From: Candidatus Cloacimonadota bacterium
Lineage (GTDB): Bacteria > Cloacimonadota > Cloacimonadia > Cloacimonadales > TCS61
Direction: 5' to 3'
NCBI GenBank assembly: GCA_021157525.1
Contig: JAGGWK010000060.1
Coordinates: forward strand, 11,293 to 75,292
DNA length: 64,000 nt
Shown here: in pieces, positions 2,400-48,483 of the stretch
How positions within the stretch are numbered: the first letter of the stretch is position 1
Layout of the letters: each line of letters begins with the position of its first letter
Made by a program: the position numbers and the translations under genes
Notes under the pieces: model-generated
Databases searched by the model: none
Told to the model about the DNA's origin: nothing
What the model saw: the letters and a program-made list of their open reading frames with translations, nothing else

Positions 2400-2415
2400 C
2401 CAAGGCGAGACAACT

Positions 2416-4208: not shown

Positions 4209-5184
4209 GTATGTAAATCCTCAATGGTTCTGGGCGCTACTCCTTCTTATTCCGGTGATTTTGTATGAGATTTTTGTACGGCCAAACAAGCAGGTACACC
4301 TCAGCCATAGTCGCCTTGATTTGCTCAAACAGGCTGCGGGGTACAGTAACTTTTTGCGGTTTATCCCTCTGATTTTGCGGGTGTTGGCCATCCTGTTTCT
4401 GGTGATAGCTCTGGCACGTCCGCGGCTGGCACACAAGCAACAGCACATCACAGGCAAAGGCATCGATATCATGCTGGCCATCGATGTGAGCGGTAGTATG
4501 AAAGCCCTGGATTTCAAACCGGTAAATCGTCTGGAAGCAGCAAAAAAAGTGGCCAGAGATTTCATTGATAAACGGGTGAATGACCGCATCGGCTGCGTGA
4601 TTTTCGCGGAAAATGCCTTTACCCAGTGCCCCCTCACCATTGATTACAACATCCTCATGAACATCATGGATCACATCCAGATAAATGAAGAAGCCAACGG
4701 CACATCCATCGGGCTGGGGTTGGCAACGGCAGTGGCGCGGCTCAAAGATTCCCCGGCCAAAACCAAGATCATCATCCTGATAACCGATGGCCGCAACAAC
4801 TCCGGTGAGATAGATCCCTCCACAGCAGCCGATCTGGCTGTCGCCTACGGCATCAAGGTATATCCCATAGGTGTCGGAAGTCGCGGACTAGTGGATTTTC
4901 CGGTGCAAACCGCCTGGGGTATGCAAACCAAGCAAGTGCAGATAGACATCGACATGGATGCTTTGGATGCCATTGCCGAAGCAACCGGCACCAGGCACGC
5001 CCGACTGGCTACAAACACCGACGAATTGGAAGAGATCATCCAGACCATCGATAAGATGGAAAAGACCGAAATAAAGATAAAAAATTATTTCACCTACGAC
5101 GAGCTTTTCCCCCGCTATCTGCTGCTGGCCCTTATATTTCTGGCACTGGAGCTGGGATTCAGGCTCTTCATTTTAAAATATTAA
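4201..5184 (+). CDS. batA: BatA (VWA domain membrane protein)
   Basis: N-terminal TM helices then VWA domain (DIMLAIDVSGSM, MIDAS motif); start at ATG 4201 after GGAGG. Confidence 0.85.
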   Translation: MLEYVNPQWFWALLLLIPVILYEIFVRPNKQVHLSHSRLDLLKQAAGYSNFLRFIPLILRVLAILFLVIALARPRLAHKQQHITGKGIDIMLAIDVSGSMKALDFKPVNRLEAAKKVARDFIDKRVNDRIGCVIFAENAFTQCPLTIDYNILMNIMDHIQINEEANGTSIGLGLATAVARLKDSPAKTKIIILITDGRNNSGEIDPSTAADLAVAYGIKVYPIGVGSRGLVDFPVQTAWGMQTKQVQIDIDMDALDAIAEATGTRHARLATNTDELEEIIQTIDKMEKTEIKIKNYFTYDELFPRYLLLALIFLALELGFRLFILKY

Positions 5185-5194
5185 TGAGGCACAT

Positions 5195-6208
5195 ATGAGA
5201 TGGGAACATCCTTTATACCTGATTTTTCTGATAGCTATTCCACTCATGGGAGCTGTTGCTTCGGTTATCGCGCACCGACGCAAACAACGGATGAGCGCCT
5301 TTGCCGAAACCCGCTTTTATGATTTTTTCATGCAGGAATTTTCCGCTTTTCATTGGGGACTCAGAAACGTGGTCTTTTTCCTGGCTCTGGTGTTTTTGAT
5401 TATTGCCCTGGCCCAACCCCAATGGAATAAAGAAGTGCAGATCATGAAAAAGGAAGGCATCGACATCGTGGTTTGCGTGGACGTATCCAAAAGCATGGAT
5501 GCGCAAGACATCAAACCCAGCCGCATCGATCGCGCCAAAGACCAGATCAGCCGCTTCATTGATGGATTGCGGGGAGACCGGATCGCTATCGTGGCCTTTG
5601 CAGGACGCAGCTTCGTGCAGTGCCCTCTCACCGATGACTACGGCGCTGCCAAGCTTTTCCTCAGTTTACTGGACACCGAAACCGTAACATCCTACGGCAC
5701 GGATATCGGTGGCGCTCTGCGAACAGCGATGCCCCTATTTTCCGAAGCGGAAAAGCATAAGGTGATCATCGTGGTGAGTGATGGCGAAGATCTGGAGGAA
5801 AATGCTCTGAAAGTGACGGAAGAAAGCGTAAAACAGGGGGCTGTAATCTACACCCTGGGCGTAGGCACCCCTCAGGGTACCACCATCCCGATATTAGATA
5901 AACAAGGTAACACCGTCTATGCAAAAGACGATGATGGCAACATTGTATTCACCAAGCTGGATGTATCCACCCTCACTGATATCGCCCGCAAAGGGAACGG
6001 TCGATTCTACCCCATCACGCCACAGCAATCGGAGATTTTCGAAATCCTCAACACCATTAATCAGATAGAAAAGAAGAAATTCGACAGCAAAGAGTATCTG
6101 CGCTACAAAGAACAGTATGCCTGGTTCGCCGCTATCGCTTTGCTGATACTGTGCATCGAGTGGCTCATTGTTACCCGCCGCAAAACCACCTTGAGGAGAA
6201 CAGTATGA
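5195..6208 (+). CDS. batB: BatB (VWA domain membrane protein)
   Basis: 337 aa; TM + VWA (DIVVCVDVSKSM); paralog of BatA. Confidence 0.85.
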   Translation: MRWEHPLYLIFLIAIPLMGAVASVIAHRRKQRMSAFAETRFYDFFMQEFSAFHWGLRNVVFFLALVFLIIALAQPQWNKEVQIMKKEGIDIVVCVDVSKSMDAQDIKPSRIDRAKDQISRFIDGLRGDRIAIVAFAGRSFVQCPLTDDYGAAKLFLSLLDTETVTSYGTDIGGALRTAMPLFSEAEKHKVIIVVSDGEDLEENALKVTEESVKQGAVIYTLGVGTPQGTTIPILDKQGNTVYAKDDDGNIVFTKLDVSTLTDIARKGNGRFYPITPQQSEIFEILNTINQIEKKKFDSKEYLRYKEQYAWFAAIALLILCIEWLIVTRRKTTLRRTV

Positions 6209-6948
6209 GACGCACAATTCTGGGGCTTATCTGCATCCTGCCTGCCTTACTGATGGCACAACCTATGCAATATGGCAAGGCTCTGAATAATCTCAAAGGC
6301 ATCCGGCACTACAAAAAAGGAGAGCTGGAGCCGGCGGAAAAAAACTTCAGTGAAAACGCCCTCACTCATCCCGATGACGGACGGCTGCACTTCAACCTGG
6401 GAAACGCCTATTACAAAGAGGGAAAATACGAACAAGCCGAAGCGGAATATCAGTTGGCCGCAAAAGACAAAAAATTCTCGGCGCAATCACAAATTCAGCA
6501 CAACTTGGGAAACGTAAAATATCAGCAGCAGGATTTCAAAACCGCCGTTGAACATTATCGCAATGCCCTCATCGCCGATCCAAACAACCGAGAAGCCCGT
6601 TACAACTATGAATTGGCAGCAAAAAACTTGCAGCGTCAGCAAAACCAGCAGCAACAGCAAAACGATGATAACAAAAATAAAGACGACAAGGAGAAACAAA
6701 AGCAACAGCAGCAATCTGACGACCAGCAAAAACAGGATAAAGAAAAACAGCAGAAACAGGAACAACAGAAGCAGGAACAACAACAGAAACAGGATGCTCA
6801 ACAAAAGCAGCAAAAACTGAAAAAAGACGAAGAGAAAAAAGATGCTGAGCAATTGCTGGAAGCTCTCTTGGCCAAAGAAAAAGAAGAGATGAAAGAAGAA
6901 AAGCGAAAGTTGAACGTTGACAAATCGAAATCCGGTAAATATTGGTAA
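6205..6948 (+). CDS. batC: BatC-like TPR protein with Q/K-rich low-complexity C-terminal tail
   Basis: signal peptide, TPR repeats (GNAYYKEGKYEQA..), then about 100 aa of Q/K/D/E low-complexity; start ATG 6205 after GAGGAG. Confidence 0.75.
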   Translation: MRRTILGLICILPALLMAQPMQYGKALNNLKGIRHYKKGELEPAEKNFSENALTHPDDGRLHFNLGNAYYKEGKYEQAEAEYQLAAKDKKFSAQSQIQHNLGNVKYQQQDFKTAVEHYRNALIADPNNREARYNYELAAKNLQRQQNQQQQQNDDNKNKDDKEKQKQQQQSDDQQKQDKEKQQKQEQQKQEQQQKQDAQQKQQKLKKDEEKKDAEQLLEALLAKEKEEMKEEKRKLNVDKSKSGKYW

Positions 6949-6977
6949 ATTCCTATAGAACGTGGATAGAGGAAATC

Positions 6978-8765
6978 ATGAAGCAACGAATCATCATTCT
7001 TTGGATACTGCTCCTTGCCTGCTCAGTAGCCTTTGGCGCCGAGCTGGAGGTACAGTCATACGTCGATCGCACCACTGTGGGTTTAGATGATTATCTGAAA
7101 TTCACCGTAGAAGTTACAGGATCTAAAGCGAACAAAGCTTCCATTCCCAGCCTCAGCGGTCTGAAGGGATTTCGGAATCTTGGCGCCTCCACATCGTCAT
7201 CATCCAGCTACTCGGTGGTAAATGGCAAAATGACATCCAGTGTTTCCGCCAGTACCACCTTCACATTACAACCTCTGGCTACGGGAGAGCAGATTTTACC
7301 GCCGGTGAGTGTGCAATTCAAAGGCAAAACCTACACCACCAAACCAATTCGCATCAAGGTAAAGGAAGGGAGCACAGAACCGGCTCCACCGGTTTCTCAG
7401 CAGATGCAGCAAAGGGGAAGCACCCATCAATCCTCGGATAAGTTAGCAGATAATATGTTCATTATCGCCGATGTTTCACAAAAATCGGTGTATAAATCTC
7501 AGCCCATCACGGTAGATTTTTACCTCTATACCAAGTATGATGTGCGCAATCTTTCTTTTGGTGAAGAGTCTTCTTACAGCGGTTTTTGGAAGGAAATCAC
7601 CTATACTCCCGACCATATTAATTTCCGCCGCACCACCTATGATGGCCAACTTTTCAATGTGATGCGGCTGCGCAGTATTACCCTGCTTCCCACCCGCAGT
7701 GGAGAACTATCCATTCCTCCTCTGGAGATGCTGATAGATGTAACCGTGCCAGCCCGCAGTTTCTTTGATTTTGGCTCCACCAAACGTTACACCATCCGCA
7801 GTAAAAAAATTCCTATAAAAGTGCGGGACATCCCTCTGGAAGGAAGACCGGAAAGCTACAGCGGCGCAGTGGGTTCGTTCACCATAAAAAGTGAAATCAG
7901 TGATACTCAAGTGAAATCCGGGGAATCCCTTACCTATACCATCACCATATCGGGTAGTGGAAATTTCAGCAATATCGAGCCGCCGGCTATGCCGGATGTT
8001 AATCATCTGCGCTTTGTTGAGCCGGAAATAACCAACGACGTTTCCAGCGGAGGCGTGAAGGGTAGCAAAGTCATCCGTTCTCTGGTGATTCCGGAAGAGC
8101 AGGGAACCTACACCATCCCAGCCCTGAGTTTTGCCTATTTCGATCCTCAGCAAAAAGCCTATAAAGTTCTCAAAACTGCTACTCACACCATCAATGTGGA
8201 CAAGGGTGAAACCCTCTACATCCCATCAGCCGGAGCTCAAAACGTGGTTCACATAGAAGGCGCAGACATCGGTTTTATTCAGATTCCCGACACGGTAACG
8301 TCTTTTCATCTTTACTTTGATGCAGCAGGATTCTGGCTCATCTGGCTTATTTTGGCTCTGTGCATTCCGGCAGCTGTGATCTTTGCAAAAGAGCAGGAAA
8401 AATTGCGTGGAAACCTGCATTATCAGCGGAAGCGCCTGGCTACACGCATCCTGAAGAAATACCTGAGACAGGCCACCGAATACGCACAAAACAAAGACAG
8501 AGCCTTTTACACCGCCGCTCAAACCGGACTTCTTACCTACCTTGCCGATGTGTTACACATAGCCCGCGGCAGTACCGCAGACGCAGTTTTGCTTGAGCTG
8601 AAAAGCCGTATCGATTCAGCAACGCTGTATCAGCGCACCAGTAGCATGATAGAGCGTTGCAACCAGGCGCGCTTCATGCCGGGAGGCTTTGCCAGCGAAA
8701 ACATCCCTCGGGATTTTGAATTGCTGAAGGAAATCATGGCCGACATCGCCAAACTGAAATTGTGA
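6978..8765 (+). CDS. batD: BatD (oxygen-tolerance protein)
   Basis: about 595 aa, N-terminal signal, C-terminal TM; BatD-like architecture and operon position. Confidence 0.75.
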   Translation: MKQRIIILWILLLACSVAFGAELEVQSYVDRTTVGLDDYLKFTVEVTGSKANKASIPSLSGLKGFRNLGASTSSSSSYSVVNGKMTSSVSASTTFTLQPLATGEQILPPVSVQFKGKTYTTKPIRIKVKEGSTEPAPPVSQQMQQRGSTHQSSDKLADNMFIIADVSQKSVYKSQPITVDFYLYTKYDVRNLSFGEESSYSGFWKEITYTPDHINFRRTTYDGQLFNVMRLRSITLLPTRSGELSIPPLEMLIDVTVPARSFFDFGSTKRYTIRSKKIPIKVRDIPLEGRPESYSGAVGSFTIKSEISDTQVKSGESLTYTITISGSGNFSNIEPPAMPDVNHLRFVEPEITNDVSSGGVKGSKVIRSLVIPEEQGTYTIPALSFAYFDPQQKAYKVLKTATHTINVDKGETLYIPSAGAQNVVHIEGADIGFIQIPDTVTSFHLYFDAAGFWLIWLILALCIPAAVIFAKEQEKLRGNLHYQRKRLATRILKKYLRQATEYAQNKDRAFYTAAQTGLLTYLADVLHIARGSTADAVLLELKSRIDSATLYQRTSSMIERCNQARFMPGGFASENIPRDFELLKEIMADIAKLKL

Positions 8766-8772
8766 GGAAATC

Positions 8773-9531
8773 ATGCGGAAATTAATGATCATCTTTACCC
8801 TGATACTCCCGCTTCTGGTGGGAGCCAACTCAACCATAGACACCGCTTTTCAGCGGGGTGTAACGGCCTACGAGAACCAGGAATATCAAGAGGCTCTGGA
8901 TATATTTTTACAGATTCAGGAGCAGGGCATCACCAATGCTGATGTGGCCTACAACATAGGTAACTGCTATTTTCGTCTGCAAAATATCGGCCTGGCAATT
9001 CTCTACTACAAGCGTGCCCTCCGCATCAATCCGGCCCACGGCCCTGCAGAGAAAAACCTCCGTTACGCCATGGAACTCACCGTGGATAAACAGCACCCCG
9101 CTACTGAGGATGCCTTCAGCAGCACCGTGTCGCGATCTTTCAATCGCATCCCGGCAAATGCCCTGGCTATCGCTGCGTTGATTCTTTTTGCGTTGATCGT
9201 TATCACCCTGTGCGCAATGATCATTTTTTGGCGGGGGCGTGAAAAATCGCTGCCCACCTTTATCCTCACCATCATCATCGTTTTCTGGATAATCGCTCTC
9301 TTTGGGGCCAATCTCAAGTGGCGGCAGTTTCATCATGATCCCACAGCGGTCATTATCGCTGACACAGTAATGGGCTATAGTGGCCCAAATGCAGAATACA
9401 CACGGGTTTTCACCATTCACGAAGGAATGATCTGCCAGATTGAACGGCAAGAAGAAGGCTGGAGTTTGATCAAATTGTCCAATGGTCTGGGAGGCTGGGT
9501 AGAGAACACAACATTTGCAAAGGTGCGTTAA
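8773..9531 (+). CDS. batE: BatE-like TPR + SH3b domain protein
   Basis: TPR repeats (ADVAYNIGNCYFRLQN), TM segments, C-terminal SH3-like GWSLIKLSNGLGGWVE. Confidence 0.7.
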   Translation: MRKLMIIFTLILPLLVGANSTIDTAFQRGVTAYENQEYQEALDIFLQIQEQGITNADVAYNIGNCYFRLQNIGLAILYYKRALRINPAHGPAEKNLRYAMELTVDKQHPATEDAFSSTVSRSFNRIPANALAIAALILFALIVITLCAMIIFWRGREKSLPTFILTIIIVFWIIALFGANLKWRQFHHDPTAVIIADTVMGYSGPNAEYTRVFTIHEGMICQIERQEEGWSLIKLSNGLGGWVENTTFAKVR

Positions 9532-9532
9532 T

Positions 9533-10069
9533 ATGAAAGAGATGCTCACGGTTCCAAATCTTTTGGGATTCGCCAGAATTTTGTTAGCTCCGGTCATTTT
9601 CTGGATGCTGATAACCGGAAATGATGCAACTTTTTATGTCATGGGAGCAGCTCTATTTACCGACCTTCTGGACGGCCTGCTGGCCCGGCTTTTGCACCAG
9701 ATCACCAACTTTGGCCGCATCCTCGATCCTATCGCCGATAGAATACTTTTCACCTTCGCTTTACTGGGTCTGTGCATCCGTTACAATTACACTGCGTGGC
9801 TGCTGTTCTTTAGCATCATCATTGTGCTCTACACCACGGTTTATATCGTGGTTCGCAAAGATCTCCAGCACTACGGCGTGCACCCAAATATGCTGGGGAA
9901 AGTCTGCGTGTTCCTCAATAGTTTCGTGTTGTGGGCTATGACTTGGGGGGTTTCATCCCAGTGGCTTTTAGCCCTTTTCACCCTGCTATTATTGATTCCC
10001 CAGTTCAATTATTTATTCATTTACCTTAAAATCAGACGGAATATCAATATTCGAAAAAAAGCTGATTAG
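9533..10069 (+). CDS. CDP-alcohol phosphatidyltransferase family protein
   Basis: DLLDGLLAR...GRILDPIADR motif (D-G-x2-A-R...G-x3-D-x3-D). Confidence 0.75.
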   Translation: MKEMLTVPNLLGFARILLAPVIFWMLITGNDATFYVMGAALFTDLLDGLLARLLHQITNFGRILDPIADRILFTFALLGLCIRYNYTAWLLFFSIIIVLYTTVYIVVRKDLQHYGVHPNMLGKVCVFLNSFVLWAMTWGVSSQWLLALFTLLLLIPQFNYLFIYLKIRRNINIRKKAD

Positions 10070-10769
10070 CAGGGTAAACCGCGATATATCCAGGAGATTT
10101 GCCTTCCCTTATCACCGTTTTTTCTATAGGAAAAGTAGTTGTCAGATTCCCACGTGCAGGTGGCATCATTCTGGATTCGATCTACACAAACACCGGCCTC
10201 AACTAATTGTGCGATAAGTACTTTTTTCATATCCAGCCAGGGATGCCGTTGCGTTTGGCCGGTATCTTTCACAAATTGCCAAAACAGTTCATCATTCACC
10301 GGATAGTGCTTGCTGCAGATCGCCGGCCCCAACAATGCATAAATTCTCTGACTCTCTGCACCCAGAATCCGCATATTTTTTACCGCTTCAGCAATGATGT
10401 TTTGCCTTGTGCCATCCCGGCCTGCATGGACAGCACCAATCACTTCTGCATGAGCATCATACAGTAGCACCGGCACACAATCTGCCGTCTTTATACAGAG
10501 GAGCACATTTCTCTGCTTTGTTACCAGACCATCCACATGGGGCACCACTATCATCTGCTGAGTAAGGTCGGATGGATTGATGATTTTCACCTCGTTTCCA
10601 TGCACCTGCTCACCCAACACAATATTGGTCACAGGAGTTTCGCGCACACTGTCCTGACAGCGGGAAAGTGCATCCAGACTGTATTTGTGGTCTCCGAAGT
10701 GGTAATACACCGCTTGATGTGAAGAGAGGGGCACCTGAGTGCCCCTCTCTAATATCTGATGAAATTTCA

Positions 10770-23945: not shown

Positions 23946-24033
23946 GCAGAAGTGGTGGAATTGGCAGACACGCAAGACTAAGGATCTTGTGCCCCTATCG
24001 GGTGTGCGGGTTCAAGTCCCGCCTTCTGTACCA
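23946..24033 (+). tRNA. tRNA-Leu (leuU-like; anticodon read as AAG)
   Basis: 88 nt, long variable arm, D-arm GTGGTGGAATTGGCAGACAC, T-arm GCGGGTTCAAGTCCCGC, G1-U72, encoded CCA; anticodon loop CTAAGGA. Confidence 0.8.
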
Positions 24034-30644: not shown

Positions 30645-30719
30645 ATGGTTGGGCTAGAAGGAGTTGAACCCTCACATACGGAACCAGAATCCGCTGTACT
30701 ACCATTATACTATAGCCCA
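30645..30719 (-). tRNA. tRNA-Gln (anticodon CTG)
   Basis: 75 nt, U1-A72 pair typical of bacterial tRNA-Gln, anticodon loop TTCTGGT, encoded CCA. Confidence 0.8.
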
Positions 30720-30727
30720 GAGAAACA

Positions 30728-30802
30728 TGGTTGGGCCGGGAGGATTCGAACCCCCGCATACATGGACCAAAACCATGTGTCTTACCACTTGACGACGGCC
30801 CA
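30728..30802 (-). tRNA. tRNA-Gln (anticodon TTG)
   Basis: 75 nt, U1-A72, anticodon loop TTTTGGT, T-arm GGGGGTTCGAATCCTCC, encoded CCA. Confidence 0.8.
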
Positions 30803-30825
30803 ACAAAACTTCTCAAAAATATAGC

Positions 30826-30916
<91 letters not shown>

Positions 30917-30933
30917 AAAATAGCAAAGATCAA

Positions 30934-31019
30934 TGGCGGAGGATGAGGGACTCGAACCCCCAAGGGCATAGCCCGGCGGTTTTCAAGACCGCTGCCTTAC
31001 CAATTAGGACTAATCCTCC
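30934..31019 (-). tRNA. tRNA-Ser (anticodon TGA)
   Basis: 86 nt, long variable arm, anticodon loop CTTGAAA, T-arm GGGGGTTCGAGTCCCTC, encoded CCA. Confidence 0.75.
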
Positions 31020-35136: not shown

Positions 35137-35994
35137 ATGGAAAGATCCGCACCAACACAGAATCGGCTTTCAGGCATCGTGATTGCACTGATTATCTCGC
35201 TGTTGCTGCACCTATTGGTCATTGTGGTGATCTCCTTTTTGCAAACCGATTTCCTTCATCATTTTGTGCAGGATGTACCATTGGTACCGCCATCCCGGGA
35301 AAAACCGCTGGTTTTCGAGTTGGTAGAAACCCCGGATGTTCCCTCTTCACCACCAGAGCAACCAACCGATCTGGCATCAGATACCGCCACTTCAGCCCGG
35401 GATGCGGTGGACAAACAGCTTCCCATCAGTGATACACCTTATGCCGAAGGAACTGCCAGCACCAGAGATGTCACAGCTCCCGCAAAGCCTGAGAACCAGC
35501 CCCGGGCAGAGCCGTCCAGCGCAACTGCTGCCGTTGAAGGACAGGGGAAAGAAACCGCCACTCCGGCAGAACAGCAGCCGGTAGTAATTCCTCAGATGCT
35601 GGCATCGAATCAGCAGAGTTTTAGAAATCTGCGCTCTGAGGTTGCATCCAGAGGCGGGATGATGTTGAACACCTATCAGTGGAAATATGCACCATACCTG
35701 CTCAAGCTCAAACGGAGAATTTCCGGTAACCTGAGACCGCCCTACGCCTTTACCCGACTGGGCATCATCGGCGGTCAAAACCTTATCCGCTTCCGCATCA
35801 ACCCCGATGGAGCTATTGTGAATGTGACGCTTTTGTGGAGCAATTCCCACGAATCCCTGGAGCAGAGCAGCATAGCAGCCATAGAAAAGTCCCATCCATT
35901 TTTGCCGCTTCCTGCGGGATTTCCCAAAGAATACCTGGAGATAACGGCCCTCTTTACGTACAATAACAAACCACCAACAGAAGGTAGAAAATGA
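35137..35994 (+). CDS. tonB: energy transducer TonB
   Basis: N-terminal TM anchor, Pro/Glu-rich linker, C-terminal TonB domain (YAPYLLKLKRRISGNL...GAIVNVTL). Confidence 0.8.
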   Translation: MERSAPTQNRLSGIVIALIISLLLHLLVIVVISFLQTDFLHHFVQDVPLVPPSREKPLVFELVETPDVPSSPPEQPTDLASDTATSARDAVDKQLPISDTPYAEGTASTRDVTAPAKPENQPRAEPSSATAAVEGQGKETATPAEQQPVVIPQMLASNQQSFRNLRSEVASRGGMMLNTYQWKYAPYLLKLKRRISGNLRPPYAFTRLGIIGGQNLIRFRINPDGAIVNVTLLWSNSHESLEQSSIAAIEKSHPFLPLPAGFPKEYLEITALFTYNNKPPTEGRK

Positions 35995-36614
35995 AAGAAT
36001 TTATCGCATTACTCCAGCAGGGCGGCATCATTATGTATCCGCTACTGCTCTGCTCGGTGATCTCCCTGGCCATCGTTATCGAGCGCTGTTTTACATTACG
36101 GCACAAGCACATAATCGTTCCGGAGATCGAGAAGGTTGTACGCTCTATTCGCACAGCCGAAGACATCCCGTTGGCACTGAAGGTCTGTAGTCAGAACAAA
36201 GGGCCCTTTGCCGCTATTATGCGGGTAGGACTGGAGAATCACACCCTCCCCGCTGCGATTCTCAAAGAGGAAATCACCAACCACGGACGCCAGCAGGTAC
36301 GGGTGCTGGAGCGGGGATTGGTGGTATTGGAAACCGTTGCTGCGGTGAGTCCCATCCTGGGCTTGCTGGGAACGGTGGTAGGGATGATCAAAGTGTTTAA
36401 AGTCATCTCCTTGCAAGGTGTGGGAGAAGCATCCGCTCTATCGGGGGGTATTTCCGAAGCACTCATCACCACAGCAGCAGGTTTGACAGTGGCCATCCCG
36501 ACCGTGATATTTTATAATTTTCTCTCCCAGAAAGCCGAGAACCTGATAATGGACATTGAGGATAATGCCAACAATCTGGTGCGGACGATTCGAGAGTTTT
36601 CCAAGGATGCATGA
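35991..36614 (+). CDS. exbB: MotA/TolQ/ExbB proton channel protein
   Basis: 207 aa, 3 TM, conserved C-terminal TM pair; ATGA overlap with tonB. Confidence 0.85.
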   Translation: MKEFIALLQQGGIIMYPLLLCSVISLAIVIERCFTLRHKHIIVPEIEKVVRSIRTAEDIPLALKVCSQNKGPFAAIMRVGLENHTLPAAILKEEITNHGRQQVRVLERGLVVLETVAAVSPILGLLGTVVGMIKVFKVISLQGVGEASALSGGISEALITTAAGLTVAIPTVIFYNFLSQKAENLIMDIEDNANNLVRTIREFSKDA

Positions 36615-37012
36615 TGAATTTTCGTGAAAAGAAGAGACGTAACGTCACTATCAATATCACTTCCCTCATCGACGTGGTATTGCTGTTGCTCATCTTTTTC
36701 ATGCTTACCACCACCTTTTCCGAGCAGCCGGGGATGAAGCTGGAATTGCCGGAAGCCAAGAGTTTTGGAACCCAGCGATTTTCTCAGTTGGAAGTTTCCA
36801 TCGGTGCTGATGGCACTCTCGTCCTCAATGGCAACAAGATTGCCACCGAGGATTTGAAGCAGGCAATCACCGACCTGGTTCCTCAGATCGAAGAAAAAAC
36901 CATCATCCTGCGGGCTGATAAAGCGGTGCAACACGGTGTGGTGGTGATGGTGATGGATGTGGCCCGCAGTGCAGGAATAGAAAAGGTGGTAATCGCAGCA
37001 AAACCCCGATAA
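36611..37012 (+). CDS. exbD: biopolymer transport protein ExbD/TolR
   Basis: 133 aa; single N-terminal TM (INITSLIDVVLLLLIFFM) + periplasmic domain; overlap with exbB. Confidence 0.85.
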   Translation: MMNFREKKRRNVTINITSLIDVVLLLLIFFMLTTTFSEQPGMKLELPEAKSFGTQRFSQLEVSIGADGTLVLNGNKIATEDLKQAITDLVPQIEEKTIILRADKAVQHGVVVMVMDVARSAGIEKVVIAAKPR

Positions 37013-37312: not shown

Positions 37313-38290
37313 CTATTTAAATTCCCAGACGAAGGGATCCGGGCTATTGAATACAAAACGTTTCAGATAGGAAATCATGGTGTGGAGATCATAACCTGCA
37401 GGCACCACAAAGTAATCGTATTTGGCGACGAGAGCGGCAAATTCGGCATTTTCCATGAGGGCTGCATCGACGAAATAGATACCATGGCCAGGAAGGCTTA
37501 AGTCGGATGCATCCGTTGGCTCCACCTGACGATACAACACAACGTCCTGCTCTTTCAGCAGCTCTTCTTTGAGATGAGAAAAGTATTGGCCGTTGGATGG
37601 AGTAGCCAACACCACCAGTTGCTGCCCTGGTCGGAAGACATCAATGAGACGCTGTTGTTCCTCTGGAGCACTGGTGTCGGAAAGACCTGCCAGACCCCGC
37701 ACACCGCTCACGATAAACCATAGGGCAATAAGCACCGAGGCGATGCGTCCGATGAGTTTCAGCTCTTTTACTTTACTGAAAAAACCCACAAATCCCATGG
37801 GAACGAGGTATAATGTGGTGCCCAGAAAAAAGCCGAAAAAGAGGGTTGCGCCGTTTATGGGCCCCCCGAGATTCACCGCTTTTGAGAGAGCAATAAGAAA
37901 GGATGGACAGAAATTTACTCCCGTGAGCACCCCCAGCAAAAAAGCGCTTTTGGTGATGTTTGCCATCTTCGGAATGTGACATTTTTTTGCTTTTTGATGG
38001 GATCGTACTGCGGTGAGCAGCAGATACAATGAGAGTAAAATATAGGCAATGGATGTGAAAAACGTTCGGTTGATTTCGGTGATATTTTTGCCCAGATAGC
38101 CAGCGACAGCACCAAACGCCAAGTAGGTAAAGAAGCGGCCCAGAGAAATTTCCATTACCGCAAGGAAGGTTTTACCCACTTTTTTGTCATCGCTCAGGAG
38201 ATAGGGCAGGTAAATGGGTGAGCAGGTTGCCAGACACACCACCCCCGTGGCCAGTCCTAAACCCCAGCCTTCGATCAAACTTTGTATCAT
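37313..38290 (-). CDS. DsbD/CcdA-like (DsbD_2-type) polytopic membrane protein with cysteine motifs in TM helices and C-terminal soluble domain
   Basis: 325 aa; TM1 LATCSPIYLPYL resembles CcdA SPCxLPxxP, TM4 GVNFCPSFL resembles the second CcdA Cys motif; about 120-aa C-terminal hydrophilic domain; last gene of ferredoxin operon. Confidence 0.45.
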   Translation of the reverse strand: MIQSLIEGWGLGLATGVVCLATCSPIYLPYLLSDDKKVGKTFLAVMEISLGRFFTYLAFGAVAGYLGKNITEINRTFFTSIAYILLSLYLLLTAVRSHQKAKKCHIPKMANITKSAFLLGVLTGVNFCPSFLIALSKAVNLGGPINGATLFFGFFLGTTLYLVPMGFVGFFSKVKELKLIGRIASVLIALWFIVSGVRGLAGLSDTSAPEEQQRLIDVFRPGQQLVVLATPSNGQYFSHLKEELLKEQDVVLYRQVEPTDASDLSLPGHGIYFVDAALMENAEFAALVAKYDYFVVPAGYDLHTMISYLKRFVFNSPDPFVWEFK

Positions 38291-38299
38291 AGTTGTTCC

Positions 38300-39427
38300 T
38301 TAATATCTGTAAGCAAGGCTGATGCCGTGGGTAAGCCGATCTTTCACAGTATCCCGCAACAGCACGTCGTAGCGATAGCCGATGCGCAGGGAATCATGCA
38401 GCAAAAAGCCCCCCAGTTCCCCGCTGATACCCATATCGTTCACCGACACATTGCCCAGATAATAGTTGTATTCTGCAAAGAAAACAAGCTGCCACAGGTT
38501 GTACTGCATGTTTGCCTTGAGAAGGGTTTCTTCATCGTAAAAATAGTGTTTGGCAGCCAGCCGGATACGATTGATCCGATTGCCCTCTGTGCTGATGGTG
38601 CGCTGAACGATGGATTCCCCAAAGCTTTTTCCCAGCAGCATTTCGTTGTTTTCGGTATCGTACCAGTTTTGGATATCCAGTTTTTGCACCAGCATCCAGT
38701 CTGGATGCAGCTTTGTGCTGAAGCGGGTAGTATAATGCACAAAATAAGGCACGTCGTCATAACGATCCGATTGTCCCAGGATGAGCTGCTGCTGCCAGAT
38801 GTGAGGACGTCCAAAGTAGTGCATCGTCTGTATCCCGGCACCGGCGGTATAGTAGTTAAAAACGTCTTCCTCATTCAAATCGTCGAAATGCTCAAGGGCG
38901 ATTACCGGCATCCAGGTATCGCTTTGCATCCAGGTAAGAGTCACATTGTTGCGGGTATCGAACTCGGTAATATCTTCGTCGCCGGAGTAATCGCGGATAT
39001 TGTAGCGCAGGTTTGCATCCATCAGAAGGTTCCCCACCTGATAGTGAATATTGGCGCCGAGGCCCCAGCCATTTTCCAGCAGGTATTCGCCATTAACACC
39101 GCCGACGTGGGATGGGAAATTATCTGCCGGAGAGAGTTGAACGCTGCCGAAAAATTGAACCATCCCGCCGGATAATGTACGGGTGAGGGATAGTTTGTTA
39201 CGCAGATAGTTGCGTAGATAGGTCTCTTCCAGAGTCTCTGTTTCTTCGCTGAATTTGGCAAAGGTGATGTTATCGATCTGCCATTGGCCAAATTTTTGCG
39301 TGATATAGGAGGTCATCCGAGAAGAAAAGCCCTCTTGGTTATCGGAGACAACGGAGACGGAAATCTGCTGAAGGGCCGAGAGGGAAAGCATCCCAAAAAG
39401 AATACTAAAAAGAAAGGACTGGCGCAT
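38300..39427 (-). CDS. outer-membrane beta-barrel protein
   Basis: start at ATG 39427 (AAGGAG RBS) gives signal peptide MRQSFLFSILFGMLSLSALQ; alternating amphipathic strands; C-terminal GISLAYRY aromatic terminus typical of OMPs. Confidence 0.6.
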   Translation of the reverse strand: MRQSFLFSILFGMLSLSALQQISVSVVSDNQEGFSSRMTSYITQKFGQWQIDNITFAKFSEETETLEETYLRNYLRNKLSLTRTLSGGMVQFFGSVQLSPADNFPSHVGGVNGEYLLENGWGLGANIHYQVGNLLMDANLRYNIRDYSGDEDITEFDTRNNVTLTWMQSDTWMPVIALEHFDDLNEEDVFNYYTAGAGIQTMHYFGRPHIWQQQLILGQSDRYDDVPYFVHYTTRFSTKLHPDWMLVQKLDIQNWYDTENNEMLLGKSFGESIVQRTISTEGNRINRIRLAAKHYFYDEETLLKANMQYNLWQLVFFAEYNYYLGNVSVNDMGISGELGGFLLHDSLRIGYRYDVLLRDTVKDRLTHGISLAYRY

Positions 39428-39437
39428 TGGGGCTCCT

Positions 39438-39683
39438 TTAGTGGATGGCGTTTTCCGGACAGACGTCGGCGCACTTGCCACAGGATACGCATTTGCTTGA
39501 GATAATAACGGGTTTATCGCCGTCGTAATCGATGGCGTTGTGGGGGCATACGTCGTAGCATTGGCCGCAGGCAACGCAGGATGTTTCATCTATTTCGTAG
39601 CTGGCGCCGGTGAGCTTTTTGCAGCTAATGAAGAAGAGCCCTAACATCAACAGTACCAGCAGGATGGGTAAAATTCGTTTCAT
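39438..39683 (-). CDS. exported 2x[4Fe-4S] ferredoxin-like protein (signal peptide/lipoprotein-like)
   Basis: 81 aa from ATG 39683 (GGAG RBS); MKRILPILLVLLMLGLFFISC then CVACGQCYDVCP and CVSCGKCADVCP motifs. Confidence 0.65.
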   Translation of the reverse strand: MKRILPILLVLLMLGLFFISCKKLTGASYEIDETSCVACGQCYDVCPHNAIDYDGDKPVIISSKCVSCGKCADVCPENAIH

Positions 39684-39691
39684 GGATACTC

Positions 39692-39925
39692 CTACTTTAT
39701 GGCGTTGTATGTACAGGTGGTGATGCACATTTTGCAGTCGATGCAGACATCGGTATCGATCACCGCTTTGCCATTTTGCAGACTGATAGCCTGGACGGGA
39801 CAGTAATTGACACAATCGCCACAGCCGACACAGCTTTGTTTGGAAACCTCCGGCTTGCTCTGAACCATGGCAAACAGCACGATGGTGGCCAGCAACAATA
39901 TCGCTATCACTACGTTCTTTTTCAT
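39692..39925 (-). CDS. exported 2x[4Fe-4S] ferredoxin-like protein (signal peptide)
   Basis: 77 aa; MKKNVVIAILLLATIVLFAMVQS then CVGCGDCVNYCP and CIDCKMCITTC motifs. Confidence 0.65.
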   Translation of the reverse strand: MKKNVVIAILLLATIVLFAMVQSKPEVSKQSCVGCGDCVNYCPVQAISLQNGKAVIDTDVCIDCKMCITTCTYNAIK

Positions 39926-39938
39926 CTTATATCCTTTA

Positions 39939-42416
39939 TTAATATTCTACTACTTTCAGTTTTATGGCATTTCGCGGACACCAGCTCACGCAATCACCGC
40001 AGGCTACACAAGCATCGGGATCGATGGTGGCATAGGAGCCGTGGTCAGTGATGGCATCTTCAGGACAGTGACTTACACAGTGGCCGCAGCCATTACAGGG
40101 GGGACGGTTTATCTGGTACACCAGTTTTCCGGCCGGAGAATTTGAGATTTCCGACGTATTCCCATTGTCGTCGGTGGTACGGATGGCGAAGTAGATAACT
40201 TCGCCAGAGTTCAGGCCATTCACGTCGCAGGTTTGTGATGATCCGCCAGCCAGTGGAGCCGGGGGATTGCTGAAGATATTGGCATCATCCCAGTTTGCAT
40301 CGGTGATGGGTTCATCCCAGTACCGGATGTCGTAAATCAGGGCTGTGCCGGTGGTTCCATCATCGCCGGGTGCCGTCCAGCTGATGCGGATAGTGCTGGC
40401 ATTGATTGCCAAACCGGCGACGACAGCCAAATCTGAGATGGTGGCCGGTGGCGTGGTATCTTCGGTAAGCTGGGCGATGGCAATGTTCGAGATGGCCGCC
40501 GCATTGTTATTTTCGTCATAGGCCTTGATGGCAAAATAGTAGTCCATTCCCATGGAGAGACCGGTTACCTGGTAGGTTTCGGCAGAGCCGGATGGAGCCG
40601 GAGCAGGTAGATTGGGCAACAGGTCGGCAGTTTCCCAGTTTGCCTCGGTAATCAGTGCGTTGGATGAGCGAATCTGGTAATGATCGGCAAGGCCGTCCAA
40701 TCCGTCATCTCCCACAGCGCTCCAGCTGAGGGTAATAAAAGAGTCACCTGATTCTGCCGCCAGATCGCCGATAGTGGCGGGTGGTGTAGTATCCTCCAGC
40801 AAGGTGGCAGAGGCATTGTTTGATGCTTCGGAGGTATTTTGAGAATCGTCGGTAGCTCTGATGGCAAAGTAGTACTGGATGCCAGGTTGTGGCACATCGG
40901 TAAGATAGCTTTGCACCGTGCCGGCCACTTGGGGTGCGGGTGGGTTTGGTAATGTGGTGGCATCCTGCCAGTTTGCAGTGGTAATCTGGTTTTCCGAGAT
41001 TTTTATCTCGTAGGAAACCGCCGTTCCTTCATCGCCGTCATCACCGGGAGCTGTCCAATTCAGAGTCATATCGTTCTGGGATGCCGTTACCGCCAGATCA
41101 CTGATAACAGCCGGAGGAACGGTATCGGGGATTTCGGTAGTTTCGCCGGATGGCACGTTGCTCAGGGACGATGCGTTCAGGGCGTCATCCAGTGCGATGA
41201 TGGCAAAATAGTAGGTAGTAAGGGGTTGCAATCCTTCTATCAAAAGTGCTTCGGTAGTGCCGGCTGTCTGAGGTACCATGTTTTGGGGGTAGGCTTCCAG
41301 TGCAGCCCAGTTGTCTGGTGTGATGACCTCGGTATCCACTTTGATGATGTAGGCCGATGCGGTTCCGATATTCTGGTCGTCACCCACAGCGGTCCAGTTC
41401 AGCAGGATGCTGTTCACCGATAGCGAGGCAACAGCCAGGTCGTCAATCGGTGCCGGCGCCATGATATCCCCGATGATCTGAGCCTGTACAACATTGGAGA
41501 TGGCGGCGTAATTGAGGGCATCATCGTAGGCGCGGATGGCAAAATAGTAGTTTTGCTGCAAAGGCAGATCGCTGATGATGAGGGTTTCGGCATCTCCTGC
41601 AGCAGCGGGAACCAGAGACTGGCTGTAGGTGGATGCATCCGGCCAATTGTCTGAAGTGATTTCCTGGGTGCTGTAGCGAATATCATAGCCGGCGGCAAGG
41701 CCTTCCATGGCATCGTCACCTACCGCTGTCCATCCCAGAGTGATGGTGGCTTCGGCAGAAGTTGCCGTAAGGTCTGTGATCTCTGCCGGAGCTGTGGCAT
41801 CGATGATCTCTCCAGCCACCAGGACCTGGCACACCGAGGTGCCGCTGGAGTGGTTCACCTCGTCGAAGGCTTCCAGTTCCACTGATATCTGGGCATTTTG
41901 GGGAAGATCCCGAATAATCCAGTTTTCTTCAAACCCGGCAGGAGAAGGTAGCGGAAGGATAAAATTGTAGGCAATGGGATTGTTCAACGTGTCCCGCAAT
42001 GTAAGGCCATATCGGAAGGAGTTGCCAGATGTTCCGTCATCTCCGGTAGCCACAAACTGTATCTGCACCACGCCGATGGAATCTGAAACGACGGAAAAAG
42101 AATCGATGGCGGCAGGAGCAACGACATCCGGGGTGGTGGTAAAGGCGTCTTCCGGACACTGAAATTGGTCAACACAGCGCATGCACTGTACGCATGCATC
42201 CTGATCGATATAAACGGTAAAGGTGCGGGGATCTTTTTTTATGGCGTCATAGGGACAGGAAAAGTCATCCAGACATTCGTAGCAACCCACGCATCGGGAG
42301 AACTCTACCCGAACCGGTTGTGAATCCGGCCCGACTTTCCGGGCATCATCACTACAGCTGATAACAGTAAAGAAAACAATGACTATCGCTACAACTAACA
42401 AAAAACTCTTATTCAT
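39939..42416 (-). CDS. large lipoprotein: N-terminal ferredoxin-like domain, six FN3-like repeats, C-terminal 2x[4Fe-4S] ferredoxin domain
   Basis: 825 aa from ATG 42416 (AGAGGA RBS); lipobox FTVISC; N-term CVGCYECLDDFSCP + CVQCMRCVDQFQCP; six about 105-aa repeats with WTAxGDDG...YYFAI; C-term CNGCGHCVSHCP + CVACGDCVSWCP. Confidence 0.7.
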   Translation of the reverse strand: MNKSFLLVVAIVIVFFTVISCSDDARKVGPDSQPVRVEFSRCVGCYECLDDFSCPYDAIKKDPRTFTVYIDQDACVQCMRCVDQFQCPEDAFTTTPDVVAPAAIDSFSVVSDSIGVVQIQFVATGDDGTSGNSFRYGLTLRDTLNNPIAYNFILPLPSPAGFEENWIIRDLPQNAQISVELEAFDEVNHSSGTSVCQVLVAGEIIDATAPAEITDLTATSAEATITLGWTAVGDDAMEGLAAGYDIRYSTQEITSDNWPDASTYSQSLVPAAAGDAETLIISDLPLQQNYYFAIRAYDDALNYAAISNVVQAQIIGDIMAPAPIDDLAVASLSVNSILLNWTAVGDDQNIGTASAYIIKVDTEVITPDNWAALEAYPQNMVPQTAGTTEALLIEGLQPLTTYYFAIIALDDALNASSLSNVPSGETTEIPDTVPPAVISDLAVTASQNDMTLNWTAPGDDGDEGTAVSYEIKISENQITTANWQDATTLPNPPAPQVAGTVQSYLTDVPQPGIQYYFAIRATDDSQNTSEASNNASATLLEDTTPPATIGDLAAESGDSFITLSWSAVGDDGLDGLADHYQIRSSNALITEANWETADLLPNLPAPAPSGSAETYQVTGLSMGMDYYFAIKAYDENNNAAAISNIAIAQLTEDTTPPATISDLAVVAGLAINASTIRISWTAPGDDGTTGTALIYDIRYWDEPITDANWDDANIFSNPPAPLAGGSSQTCDVNGLNSGEVIYFAIRTTDDNGNTSEISNSPAGKLVYQINRPPCNGCGHCVSHCPEDAITDHGSYATIDPDACVACGDCVSWCPRNAIKLKVVEY

Positions 42417-42770: not shown

Positions 42771-43418
42771 CTACATCATGCGCACATTAGATGTAATCAA
42801 TTGTTGCAGTTCGTTGATAGATTTTGACACTGCATGTCCGATGAGATTCATGCGGGAAATCTGATAAATCCGCTCATATGCCTTCTTCTGCTCTTCCCGG
42901 GTAAATACCTGGTCAACCAGGTTGCAGCTATTAATCAGGGACACCAGCACGATATCCCGGGGCTGGGGAATATCATCTGACAGCACCAAAGCCCGGATGC
43001 GGGTTTTCACTTCCACCTCTTCCCGATCATCTATCACGGGGTAACGGCGTTGGTTGAAGACCCAGAGGATTTTGTGTTCTTCTTTCTTCAGGATGCCTTT
43101 GGCGATCAGCTTATCCAGCATCAGTTCCCGGAGGTTTTCTATGCGGTTACGAATTTCCCACACCCAAAAAATCGAGCTCTTGTGGTCGGGGACTTCGGCA
43201 ATCATACCCAGAACACAGTCAAAGAGCTCATCGCCGGTGGGATCGCTGTTTATCAGAATGAGGTTTTCCAAGTCGGTATCGATGCGGTTCATCAGAGCCA
43301 GATCCATCAATATCGCGCCAGCCAGAGCATATTCAAAGGAAACCAGGGACATATTGATAAAGGTTCCTTTTTGGTCATCTAATGCCAGCAGCACCAGTTC
43401 TTCACCGAACGTAATCAT
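42771..43418 (-). CDS. GPP34/GOLPH3 family protein
   Basis: 215 aa; N-terminal FGEELVLLALDDQKG matches GPP34 family signature. Confidence 0.6.
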   Translation of the reverse strand: MITFGEELVLLALDDQKGTFINMSLVSFEYALAGAILMDLALMNRIDTDLENLILINSDPTGDELFDCVLGMIAEVPDHKSSIFWVWEIRNRIENLRELMLDKLIAKGILKKEEHKILWVFNQRRYPVIDDREEVEVKTRIRALVLSDDIPQPRDIVLVSLINSCNLVDQVFTREEQKKAYERIYQISRMNLIGHAVSKSINELQQLITSNVRMM

Positions 43419-48138: not shown

Positions 48139-48216
48139 TGGGGTGGCTGAGGGGATTCGAACCCCCGACTCCAAGAGCCACAATCTTGTACTCTAACCAA
48201 CTGAGCTACAGCCACC
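48139..48216 (-). tRNA. tRNA-His (anticodon GTG) with encoded G-1
   Basis: 78 nt; extra 5' G pairing with C73, anticodon loop TTGTGGC, encoded CCA. Confidence 0.8.
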
Positions 48217-48229
48217 ATAAAATTACTTA

Positions 48230-48306
48230 TGGTACGCCAGCGGGGACTCGAACCCCAGACCTACGGATTAGAAATCCGTTGCTCTATCCAGCTGAGCTAC
48301 TGGCGC
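48230..48306 (-). tRNA. tRNA-Arg (anticodon TCT)
   Basis: 77 nt; anticodon loop TTTCTAA; T-arm GGGGTTCGAGTCCCC; CCA encoded. Confidence 0.8.
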
Positions 48307-48315
48307 ATAAAAAAA

Positions 48316-48392
48316 TGGTAGCGGCGCAGGGACTTGAACCCCGGACACTCGGATTATGATTCCGATGCTCTAACCAACTGAGCTACGCCGCC
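48316..48392 (-). tRNA. tRNA-Met elongator (anticodon CAT; tRNA-Ile2/lysidine not excluded)
   Basis: 77 nt; anticodon loop ATCATAA; no GGG/CCC anticodon-stem signature. Confidence 0.7.
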
Positions 48393-48406
48393 ACTCATTA
48401 AAAAAA

Positions 48407-48483
<77 letters not shown>

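Follow-up and report, generated by a model that had tools for sequence, protein, structure and literature searches.

Paired ferredoxins with predicted Sec-type export signals in a haem-free envelope operon of Candidatus Cloacimonadota

A five-gene operon with two small ferredoxins

The DNA considered here (the window) is a stretch of 64,000 nucleotides of contig JAGGWK010000060.1, from a metagenome-assembled genome (MAG) of a Candidatus Cloacimonadota bacterium. On its minus strand lies an operon of five genes: the first encodes a large predicted lipoprotein with iron–sulfur (Fe–S) domains at both ends (Big), the second and third two small ferredoxins (FerA and FerB), the fourth a predicted outer-membrane β-barrel and the fifth a membrane protein of the DsbD_2 family (Table 1). 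When the long forms of FerA and FerB are used (see below), the gaps between the five genes are only 8–13 nucleotides (nt). None of the five proteins has a CxxCH haem motif. The host phylum of the operon is, by record titles and source names, Candidatus Cloacimonadota. A scan for sigma-70 promoters and terminators gave no excess over the shuffled expectation.

The established rule is that Fe–S proteins are loaded with their clusters in the cytoplasm and are exported, folded, by way of twin-arginine translocation (Tat) (PMC10924467). Tat-only export of cofactor-bearing Fe–S proteins is a cornerstone of export biology, and genome-based prediction of exported redox proteins relies on it. The sequence-only reading of this DNA, made before the present analysis, had appealed to the same rule, which the literature upholds, when it reported two ferredoxins with signals of the general secretory (Sec) type; the coordinates, the lengths and the N-termini that it gave match exactly. 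It is the context beyond that reading which gives the finding its meaning: a Fer4–Fn3–Fer4 lipoprotein, a barrel, a DsbD_2 gene, and signals that are hidden in the deposited gene models.

Table 1. Features of the operon and of its surroundings (window coordinates; aa, amino acids; TM, transmembrane; Fn3, fibronectin type III)
Feature	Coordinates	Strand	Remarks
FerA, 77-aa ferredoxin	39692-39925	-	aa 1-23 signal peptide or signal anchor, then 54-aa 2x[4Fe-4S] domain
FerA export signal, codons 1-23	39857-39925	-	MKK, 17-residue h-region, VQS|KP
FerA Shine-Dalgarno AAAGGA	39932-39937	-	6 nt upstream of FerA ATG; orthologues AAAGGA, GAGGAG or CAGGAG
FerB, 81-aa lipoprotein ferredoxin	39438-39683	-	signal aa 1-20, predicted lipid-modified Cys21, 7-residue linker, 2x[4Fe-4S] domain
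FerB lipoprotein signal peptide, lipobox F-I-S-C, codons 1-21	39621-39683	-	PROSITE PS51257 core
FerB Shine-Dalgarno AGGAG	39689-39693	-	overlaps FerA stop TAG (39692-39694)
Big, 825-aa predicted lipoprotein, operon gene 1	39939-42416	-	signal MNKSFLLVVAIVIVFFTVISC, SDD at +2 to +4
Big N-terminal di-cluster domain, aa 42-88	42153-42293	-	both motifs Cx2Cx2Cx5CP, spacing two residues over canonical
Big six Fn3-like repeats, ~aa 100-760	40137-42119	-	W-T/S-A-x-G-D-D motif in each; Pfam fn3 and related matches
Big C-terminal canonical 2x[4Fe-4S] domain, aa 774-814, and tail	39942-40097	-	Fer4_7 match 774-817; ends KLKVVEY-COOH
Outer-membrane beta-barrel, 375 aa, gene 4	38300-39427	-	signal MRQSFLFSILFGMLSLSA|LQQ; ends SLAYRY (aromatic C-terminus)
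DsbD_2-family membrane protein, 325 aa, last operon gene	37313-38290	-	~6 TM helices and ~120-aa Cys-free C-terminal domain
TonB-ExbB-ExbD set	35137-37012	+	just past operon 3' end, opposite strand, convergent
GPP34 (Golgi phosphoprotein 3) family protein	42771-43418	-	Pfam E=2e-46; directly upstream of operon
Bacteroides-aerotolerance-type operon	1386-9531	+	MoxR AAA ATPase, DUF58, BatA/BatB-like VWA proteins, TPR proteins, BatD
tRNA cluster Gln-Gln-Ser-Ser	30646-31019	-	
tRNA cluster His-Arg-Met-Met	48139-48483	-	
Lone tRNA-Leu	23946-24033		

Long reading frames and deposited gene models

In GenBank, the FerA gene is represented by MCD6182178.1, a model of 58 aa that starts at Met20 of FerA, so that the signal is removed entirely, and the FerB gene by MCD6182177.1, a model of 69 aa that starts at Met13 of FerB, so that the signal is cut in half. 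Both models, from a Cloacimonadota MAG, are labelled ‘4Fe-4S binding protein’; proteins of the operon are deposited under this label or as ‘hypothetical protein’.

Orthologous loci were drawn from contigs with homologues, genomes of GTDB and metagenomes of JGI, and were scored by local hidden Markov models and by parsing of the N-termini. The relatives were found by an exhaustive HMMER run and two scans of collections; word-index searches gave only a handful. In every lineage checked, a Shine–Dalgarno motif (AAAGGA or GAGGAG for FerA, AGGAG or a similar motif for FerB) precedes the long-form ATG by 5–7 nt; in the window, the overlap of the FerB motif with the FerA stop codon implies translational coupling. 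The internal Met at which the deposited FerA model starts is not conserved, being Val in the 78%-identical orthologue of locus L009. Substitutions between orthologues within the signal codons avoid codon position 2, with counts by position of 8/1/12, 23/10/36, 8/2/12 and 46/14/72; the orthologue pairs are phylogenetically non-independent, and these counts are indicative and do not amount to a P value. Such a pattern is expected of a translated sequence selected for hydrophobicity rather than of a spacer. On the positions of the Shine–Dalgarno motifs, the gene spacing, the non-conserved internal Met and the codon-position pattern, the short frames (58 and 69 aa) were rejected, and the long forms are taken, on this comparative evidence, to be the translated ones. 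Thus, the deposited models hide the export signals, and surveys of deposited proteins will overlook ferredoxins of this class because the models begin at internal Met codons.

Export signals of FerA and FerB

FerA begins with MKKNVVIAILLLATIVLFAMVQS and FerB with MKRILPILLVLLMLGLFFISC. In both, a very short basic n-region is followed by a hydrophobic h-region of 17–18 residues, rich in Leu, Ile and Val, with a mean Kyte–Doolittle hydropathy of 2.9–3.2; in FerB, MKR is followed by 18 hydrophobic residues that end in F-I-S-C21. The orthologues are built alike: n-regions of 2–8 residues, with 2–5 Lys or Arg in every lineage, and h-regions of 15–20 residues (Leu, Ile, Val and Phe) with a mean hydropathy of 2.6–3.5. 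In all 28 complete FerA orthologues the n-region is rich in Lys and the h-region has 16–20 residues, and in all 30 FerB orthologues a Cys ends the h-region (the lipoboxes include ISC, AAC, IGC and WGC), the PS51257 core being matched in 9 of 10 lineages. The Sec-type signals and the lipobox-like signal of FerB, both noted by the sequence-only reading, are thus conserved features (28/28 for FerA, 30/30 for FerB), and the latter is, to judge from this conservation, a genuine lipoprotein signal.

That reading had also stated that neither protein has a twin-arginine motif. This stands: the n-regions are MKK(N) in FerA and MKR in FerB, and on re-inspection of the orthologues RR was found in a single locus, the GC-rich L013, which accounts for both occurrences (1 of 28 FerA, 1 of 30 FerB). 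Signals for Tat have a long n-region and an h-region of only moderate hydrophobicity (PMC10924467); neither these features nor the hallmark S/T-R-R-x-F-L-K is found in FerA or FerB, and both signals are assigned, on sequence, to the Sec type and not to the Tat type. In L013 itself (6614–10273), RR occurs in the n-regions of Big (MRKRR), FerA (MFMRR) and FerB (MRR), and a Tat-like reading is conceivable there alone; it is probably a matter of drift from Lys to Arg, since this lineage is GC-rich and seems to have replaced Lys by Arg in general.

For FerA, the end of the signal can be read in two ways. A site of the signal peptidase I type is present (V-Q-S|K in the window; A-V-A|S, L-A-A|S and V-V-A|E in orthologues), and cleavage after VQS would give a predicted mature form of 54 aa, as long as a clostridial ferredoxin; h-regions of 16–20 residues also fit an uncleaved anchor with its N-terminus inside. 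After the Cys that is predicted to be lipidated, FerB has Lys or other non-acidic residues, which fits a lipoprotein that faces the periplasm.

Ferredoxin domains

FerA and FerB exceed the gathering cut-offs of the Fer4 families of Pfam by a wide margin (Fer4, E=1e-12 and 1e-18), and each has two CxxCxxCxxxC motifs: CVGCGDCVNYCP and CIDCKMCITTCT in FerA, the second without the usual Pro, and CVACGQCYDVCP and CVSCGKCADVCP in FerB. Over the 52 residues of the ferredoxin domain the two proteins are 40% identical. In a search of PDB sequences, the mature part of FerB matched the solved clostridial ferredoxins 1FDN, 1FCA and 1CLF, and also polyferredoxins; RnfB is among the best matches in both NCBIfam and PDB. 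All eight ligand cysteines are invariant in the orthologues of FerA and likewise in those of FerB, while other positions diverge to about 50% identity. By these matches, the two proteins are ferredoxins of the clostridial 2×[4Fe–4S] type; the invariant ligands and canonical motifs argue that they probably bind real Fe–S clusters. The idea that they are precursors of ribosomally synthesised and post-translationally modified peptides was rejected: the domains are recognised as Fer4 and carry CP motifs, and the neighbourhood contains no maturase gene.

The partners of the ferredoxins

Big joins the same kind of domain to a quite different one. Pfam matches cover the fn3 repeats (E=8e-28) and the Fe–S domains (Fer4_6/Fer4_7, E=1e-15 to 2e-13). 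The N-terminal domain, taken in isolation, matches Fer4_6, Fer4 and Fer4_10 (E=2e-9 to 6e-8) and aligns with RnfB (8AHX_B), with a gap of two residues before each fourth Cys; its eight cysteines are invariant (8/8) across nine lineages. The motifs of the C-terminal domain are CNGCGHCVSHCP and CVACGDCVSWCP, which brings the protein to 16 cluster-ligand cysteines, or four cluster-binding sites. The number of repeats between the two domains varies from 1 to 8 among lineages, as counted by GDD motifs.

The two termini of Big are also conserved. Its lipobox is V-I-S-C21, and in about 19 of 21 orthologues the lipobox Cys is followed by [ST]-D-[DNST]. In Bacteroidota, surface lipoproteins carry export signals such as SDDDD and SDDFE (PMC5080379), both of which C-[ST]-D-[DNST] resembles; by analogy, a surface-export pathway of the Bacteroidota type may operate in Cloacimonadota. 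At the other end, a tail [VI][VI]xY (39942–39956 in the window) closes the sequence of 17 among 18 orthologues that end after the C-terminal Fe–S domain; in L013 the tail is VVAYND, two residues beyond the motif, and the L030 sequence breaks off inside the domain. The tail looks like a β-strand or a sorting motif, and the barrel is a possible docking place for it. Locus L043 contains an open reading frame (ORF) of 234 aa (2558–3262), in which the lipoprotein signal and N-terminal Fe–S domain of Big are joined to what appear to be the final barrel strands (...AGSTVLF); this ORF is a deletion variant or else a chimera produced by assembly.

The barrel protein has no match in Pfam or NCBIfam. AlphaFold2 predicts about 20 antiparallel strands that start straight after the signal, without a plug (predicted local distance difference test (pLDDT) score 71.7, from an alignment of four sequences). 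When 1.84 billion representative proteins were searched with a profile, only 32 clusters of the family emerged, and every homologue examined directly follows FerA and FerB, including the most divergent: the weakest matches looked up (P0032, E=4e-20; P0036, E=6e-13; P0038, E=6e-6) are all in the same operon. In size the barrel is like a TonB-dependent transporter; the 22 strands, N-terminal plug and TonB box of such transporters are absent.

The last protein of the operon matches DsbD_2 (PF13386, E=2.8e-22) and not DsbD (PF02683), has no match in NCBIfam and no meaningful sequence relative in PDB, and is labelled ‘sulfite exporter TauE/SafE family protein’ in GenBank. Its helices were assigned from hydropathy and the positive-inside rule only; a single-sequence AlphaFold2 model (pLDDT 48.7) was not used. 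Four cysteines are invariant across seven lineages: C19 and C23 in TM1 (CLATCSPIYLPY, pattern CLxTCxPIYxPY), C104 in a very basic loop, presumably cytoplasmic, and C128 in TM4 (NFCPSF). Conserved cysteines in TM1 and TM4 are a trait of DsbD and CcdA. Among 20 metagenome loci with at least 3 kilobases (kb) upstream of the DsbD_2 gene, 17 have genes for Sec-signal ferredoxins immediately upstream; of the other three, one is ambiguous and two lack such genes.

Variants of the operon in related lineages

Many orthologous loci start with two extra genes. One encodes SP-Fer4, a protein of 170–190 aa with a C-terminal Fer4 domain, textbook cleavage sites and acidic mature N-termini (IFA|ETGE, LYA|EEAA); the other encodes a membrane Fe–S protein of the NapH/MauN family (TIGR02163, E=1e-17; Pfam Fer4_5, E=1e-20). 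The NapH-like gene was found in loci L014, L015, L030, L033–L036, L041, L051, L054 and L071; there is none within the 64-kb window. A minimal module, with neither barrel nor Big, consists of a NapH-like gene, a gene for a signal-peptide polyferredoxin (171–177 aa, 16 Cys) and a DsbD_2 gene, in this order, and occurs in L033, L034, L036 (3904–6446) and L039. Since the DsbD_2 protein is linked to Sec-signal ferredoxins even in this minimal module, it is the prime candidate for a maturation factor, perhaps a CcdA-like reductant of the ligand cysteines; alternatively, it could supply sulfur or metal, or be the point of electron input.

In two divergent loci, L029 (1896–3077) and L031 (571–2019), the operon is headed by a gene for a DUF2271 and FlgD_ig protein with a C-terminal domain of the type IX secretion system. 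DUF2271 is a known family of ApbE flavinylation substrates (PMC8238504); the flavinylation motif [S/T]GA[S/T] is not evident in these copies (in L029 it is not obvious), and the operon in the window encodes neither ApbE nor an FMN-binding protein.

A proposed haem-free Fe–S path across the envelope

The reading that we favour, and to which we give about an even chance, is that FerA and FerB are periplasmic members of a haem-free electron-transfer module in the cell envelope of Cloacimonadota, with Fe–S clusters inserted after export by Sec. The parts of this reading differ in strength. An extracytoplasmic location of the ferredoxins is very likely, because four Fer4 families (FerA, FerB, Big and SP-Fer4) have Sec-type signals and because their neighbours are a barrel and an Fn3 lipoprotein. 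The passage of electrons across the outer membrane is the weakest step, for which the chances are slightly less than even.

The mechanism can be pictured as follows. All four soluble components would be made with Sec-type signals and would cross the inner membrane unfolded, as apoproteins. Signal peptidase I would cut FerA down to a free 54-aa ferredoxin, or FerA would stay tethered by its signal; FerB would be lipidated on Cys21 and face the periplasm; Big would be lipidated and, probably, be shown on the cell surface by means of its C-S/T-D-D motif. Chains pass through Sec unfolded, and their clusters would therefore need to be added outside the cytoplasm. Clostridial-type apo-ferredoxins take up clusters spontaneously when given Fe(II), sulfide and a thiol reductant, and insertion of [4Fe–4S] clusters after export would be chemically plausible in the habitats of this phylum, which are anoxic and rich in sulfide and Fe(II). 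The DsbD_2 protein may aid it by keeping the 8–16 ligand cysteines of each protein reduced, as CcdA and DsbD do for apocytochrome c, or may supply metal or sulfur, or may itself feed in electrons. The plug-less barrel of about 20 strands would let the periplasmic ferredoxins touch the surface protein, by analogy with MtrA, which inside MtrB contacts MtrC. In related lineages, the NapH-like protein and the extra signal-peptide ferredoxin would tie the chain to the cytoplasmic membrane.

Several points weigh against this picture. Export, cofactor and function are all predicted from sequence, and we know of no extracytoplasmic machinery for Fe–S assembly in any bacterium. The Fe–S domains of Big are held apart by six Fn3 domains that are without cofactors, so that the protein could serve as an unbroken wire only if it oligomerises or its two ends pack against each other. 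Confidence in the barrel model is no more than moderate. The label of the DsbD_2 protein is ambiguous, fitting a thiol–disulfide carrier, a metal permease or an anion exporter, and the 64-kb window has no NapH-like gene through which electrons might enter. As for the signals, the flank on the C-terminal side of the h-region is as basic as the n-region in 5 of 10 FerA orthologues, so the charge rule alone does not settle the topology of FerA; and the Lys residues at +2/+3 after the FerB Cys, like the basic residues after the FerA h-region, are features that can slow export by Sec.

A bolder form of the favoured reading is tentative, and distinctly less probable than the passage of electrons as such: that Cloacimonadota build a full trans-envelope conduit from ferredoxins, with apo-forms passing through Sec, [4Fe–4S] clusters being added in the periplasm and on the surface by a dedicated, hitherto undescribed route centred on the DsbD_2 protein, and one or two 6-kDa ferredoxins forming, within the barrel, a bridge of four clusters that reaches the surface lipoprotein. 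If this were true, it would be the first bacterial pathway of Fe–S assembly outside the cytoplasm and the first haem-free ‘porin–ferredoxin’ complex, and would explain at the molecular level how Cloacimonadota could carry out direct interspecies electron transfer (DIET) in anaerobic digesters.

Alternative explanations

An unlikely alternative, though the strongest of them, is that the exported Cys-rich domains are not electron carriers but belong to a system that acquires or traffics iron, sulfide or ready-made FeS clusters: apo-domains on the surface and in the periplasm would capture iron or sulfur, the barrel would admit them, and the DsbD_2 protein would move metal or sulfur over the inner membrane (in a weaker version, the domains would hold another metal or structural disulfides). 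The TauE/SafE label fits such a role, as does the DsbD_2 family of Pfam, which covers UreH-type nickel permeases as well; the barrel has the size of a TonB-dependent transporter and a TonB–ExbB–ExbD set lies beside the operon in the window; and the cluster ligands would be accessible after export by Sec. Yet the barrel has neither plug nor TonB box, ORF inspection did not reveal TonB–ExbBD beside the operon in L014, L017 or L036, and many versions of the operon include NapH-like proteins, which belong to electron transfer. The canonical CxxCxxCxxxCP motifs, with their conserved Pro, and the matches to true ferredoxins point to stable cubane clusters rather than to transient binding.

Somewhat less probable again is a redox chain of Fe–S proteins that ends in the periplasm: the ferredoxins would be a Sec-dependent counterpart of NapGH and would feed a periplasmic reductase or oxidase yet to be identified, while the barrel and the Fn3 lipoprotein would serve the entry or binding of its substrate. 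The minimal NapH-like/polyferredoxin/DsbD_2 form of the module, and the splitting of the Fe–S domains of Big by Fn3 repeats, speak for this. What tells against it is the confinement of the barrel family to this operon, always directly behind FerA and FerB, together with the 16 cluster-ligand cysteines and surface-export-like motif of Big; moreover, the operon encodes no candidate for a catalytic subunit.

A topological alternative would remove the need for cluster insertion outside the cytoplasm. RnfB has an N-terminal helix and a cytoplasmic Fe–S domain, and if the N-terminal helices of FerA and FerB were anchors of this kind, with the N-terminus outside, the ferredoxin domains would remain in the cytoplasm and receive their clusters normally. 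The place of RnfB among the top NCBIfam and PDB matches, the length of the FerA h-regions (16–20 residues) and the basic C-terminal flanks of some FerA orthologues are compatible with it. It is nevertheless very improbable: the invariant lipobox Cys of FerB is processed only on the outer face of the membrane; the n-regions of every lineage have Lys or Arg, which such anchors lack; many FerA and all SP-Fer4 orthologues have AXA-type sites and an acidic or neutral sequence after the h-region; and the neighbouring genes encode Fn3 and outer-membrane proteins. For FerB the lipobox rules this rival out; for FerA the rival is disfavoured. The sequence-only reading had set against itself a different case, an anchor with its N-terminus inside and a cytoplasmic Cys domain, which is topologically impossible for a single N-terminal helix. 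Of the three options that it had left open, namely periplasmic cluster assembly, a signal anchor and another cofactor, the first and the third are both compatible with the present evidence.

The faintest possibility is that clusters are loaded in the cytoplasm and the folded proteins leave through the Tat system, either in spite of lacking RR or as hitch-hikers on a Tat substrate: the RR of the three L013 proteins and the basic residues after the h-region, which resemble Sec-avoidance motifs, would suit it, but in 27 of 28 FerA and 29 of 30 FerB orthologues the n-region is of the KK, KR or K-only kind and 2–8 residues long, the h-regions are far more hydrophobic than those of Tat signals (PMC10924467), and each protein has a signal of its own, which hitch-hikers lack, with no Tat-signal partner for them in the operon.

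Relation to known systems

The system can be classed as a variant of two known kinds, extracytoplasmic ferredoxin modules and conduits of a porin with redox proteins. With the clostridial ferredoxins 1FDN, 1FCA and 1CLF its small proteins share the domain size (about 54 aa), the pair of CxxCxxCxxxC(P) motifs and a clear sequence match; the clostridial proteins, however, are cytoplasmic and signal-less, whereas FerA has a Sec signal and lacks the Pro of the second motif, and FerB has a lipoprotein signal. The likeness of the DsbD_2 protein to CcdA and DsbD lies in its six helices, in Cys-Pro motifs in TM1 and TM4, and in being encoded together with Sec-exported proteins that need reduced cysteines for a cofactor; unlike them, it belongs to PF13386, has four invariant cysteines and an additional Cys-free C-terminal domain, and has no thioredoxin-like partner.

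Among systems of the outer membrane, DmsEFAB of Shewanella is alike in that an Fe–S subunit, DmsB, lies on the outer face of the outer membrane beside a barrel; it is unlike in that DmsAB is exported folded by Tat, crosses the outer membrane by type II secretion and receives electrons via a decahaem cytochrome. The porin–cytochrome complex MtrCAB of Shewanella (PDB 6R2Q) resembles the operon by layout, a barrel being encoded with periplasmic carriers and a surface lipoprotein. This is an analogy only: the barrel of MtrCAB has 26 strands and its cofactor is haem, whereas the barrel here has about 20 strands and belongs to an unrelated sequence family, haem motifs are absent, and the cofactors would be Fe–S clusters.

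At the inner membrane, NapG and NapH, the quinol dehydrogenase of periplasmic nitrate reductase (and also other Tat-exported periplasmic ferredoxins: NrfC, HybA and DmsB), provide a parallel, a poly-ferredoxin outside the inner membrane that works with a NapH-type membrane Fe–S protein, and NapH-like genes are present in the related loci; those proteins bear twin-arginine signals and acquire their clusters in the cytoplasm (PMC10924467), whereas FerA and FerB have Sec signals and the 64 kb of the window include no gene of the NapH-like kind. NapH-like and DsbD proteins are recognised as transmembrane devices that transfer electrons to extracytosolic redox proteins (PMC8238504). In the flavinylation-associated systems described by Meheust et al. 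2021 (PMC8238504), such modules feed secreted or lipidated redox proteins, and DUF2271 is shared with L029 and L031; the carriers there are flavinylated, whereas here they are ferredoxins.

DIET has been proposed for Cloacimonadota on the evidence of pili, and the phylum is absent from the list of those with cytochromes (PMC7382037, PMC13082233). The operon is a concrete candidate, free of cytochromes, for electron transfer to the outside or between species in these abundant syntrophs of anaerobic digesters. A literature search turned up no account of ferredoxins that are exported by Sec, secreted or extracellular, of the FerA/FerB operon, or of Tat in Cloacimonas; recent papers on the genomics of Cloacimonadota deal with ferredoxin metabolism in the cytoplasm only. 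With some 60 orthologous ferredoxins from many lineages, all with conserved Sec or lipoprotein signals, the maturation of Fe–S proteins outside the cytoplasm becomes a question that can be tested directly.

Surroundings of the operon

The neighbours of the operon are housekeeping genes (aminoacyl-tRNA synthetases, NadABC, phosphoenolpyruvate carboxykinase (PEPCK), Lon and RNase G), and nothing suggests a mobile element around it. Pfam scans of 30 further proteins of the window likewise gave housekeeping genes only, with none for Tat, SUF/ISC or cytochrome maturation. A tblastn search of 814 kb of sequence with Escherichia coli TatA and TatC found no match; it is not at genome level and carries no weight. 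The TonB–ExbB–ExbD set is present in all contigs of the same species, and the GPP34 gene holds the same position in the 57%-related L009 lineage.

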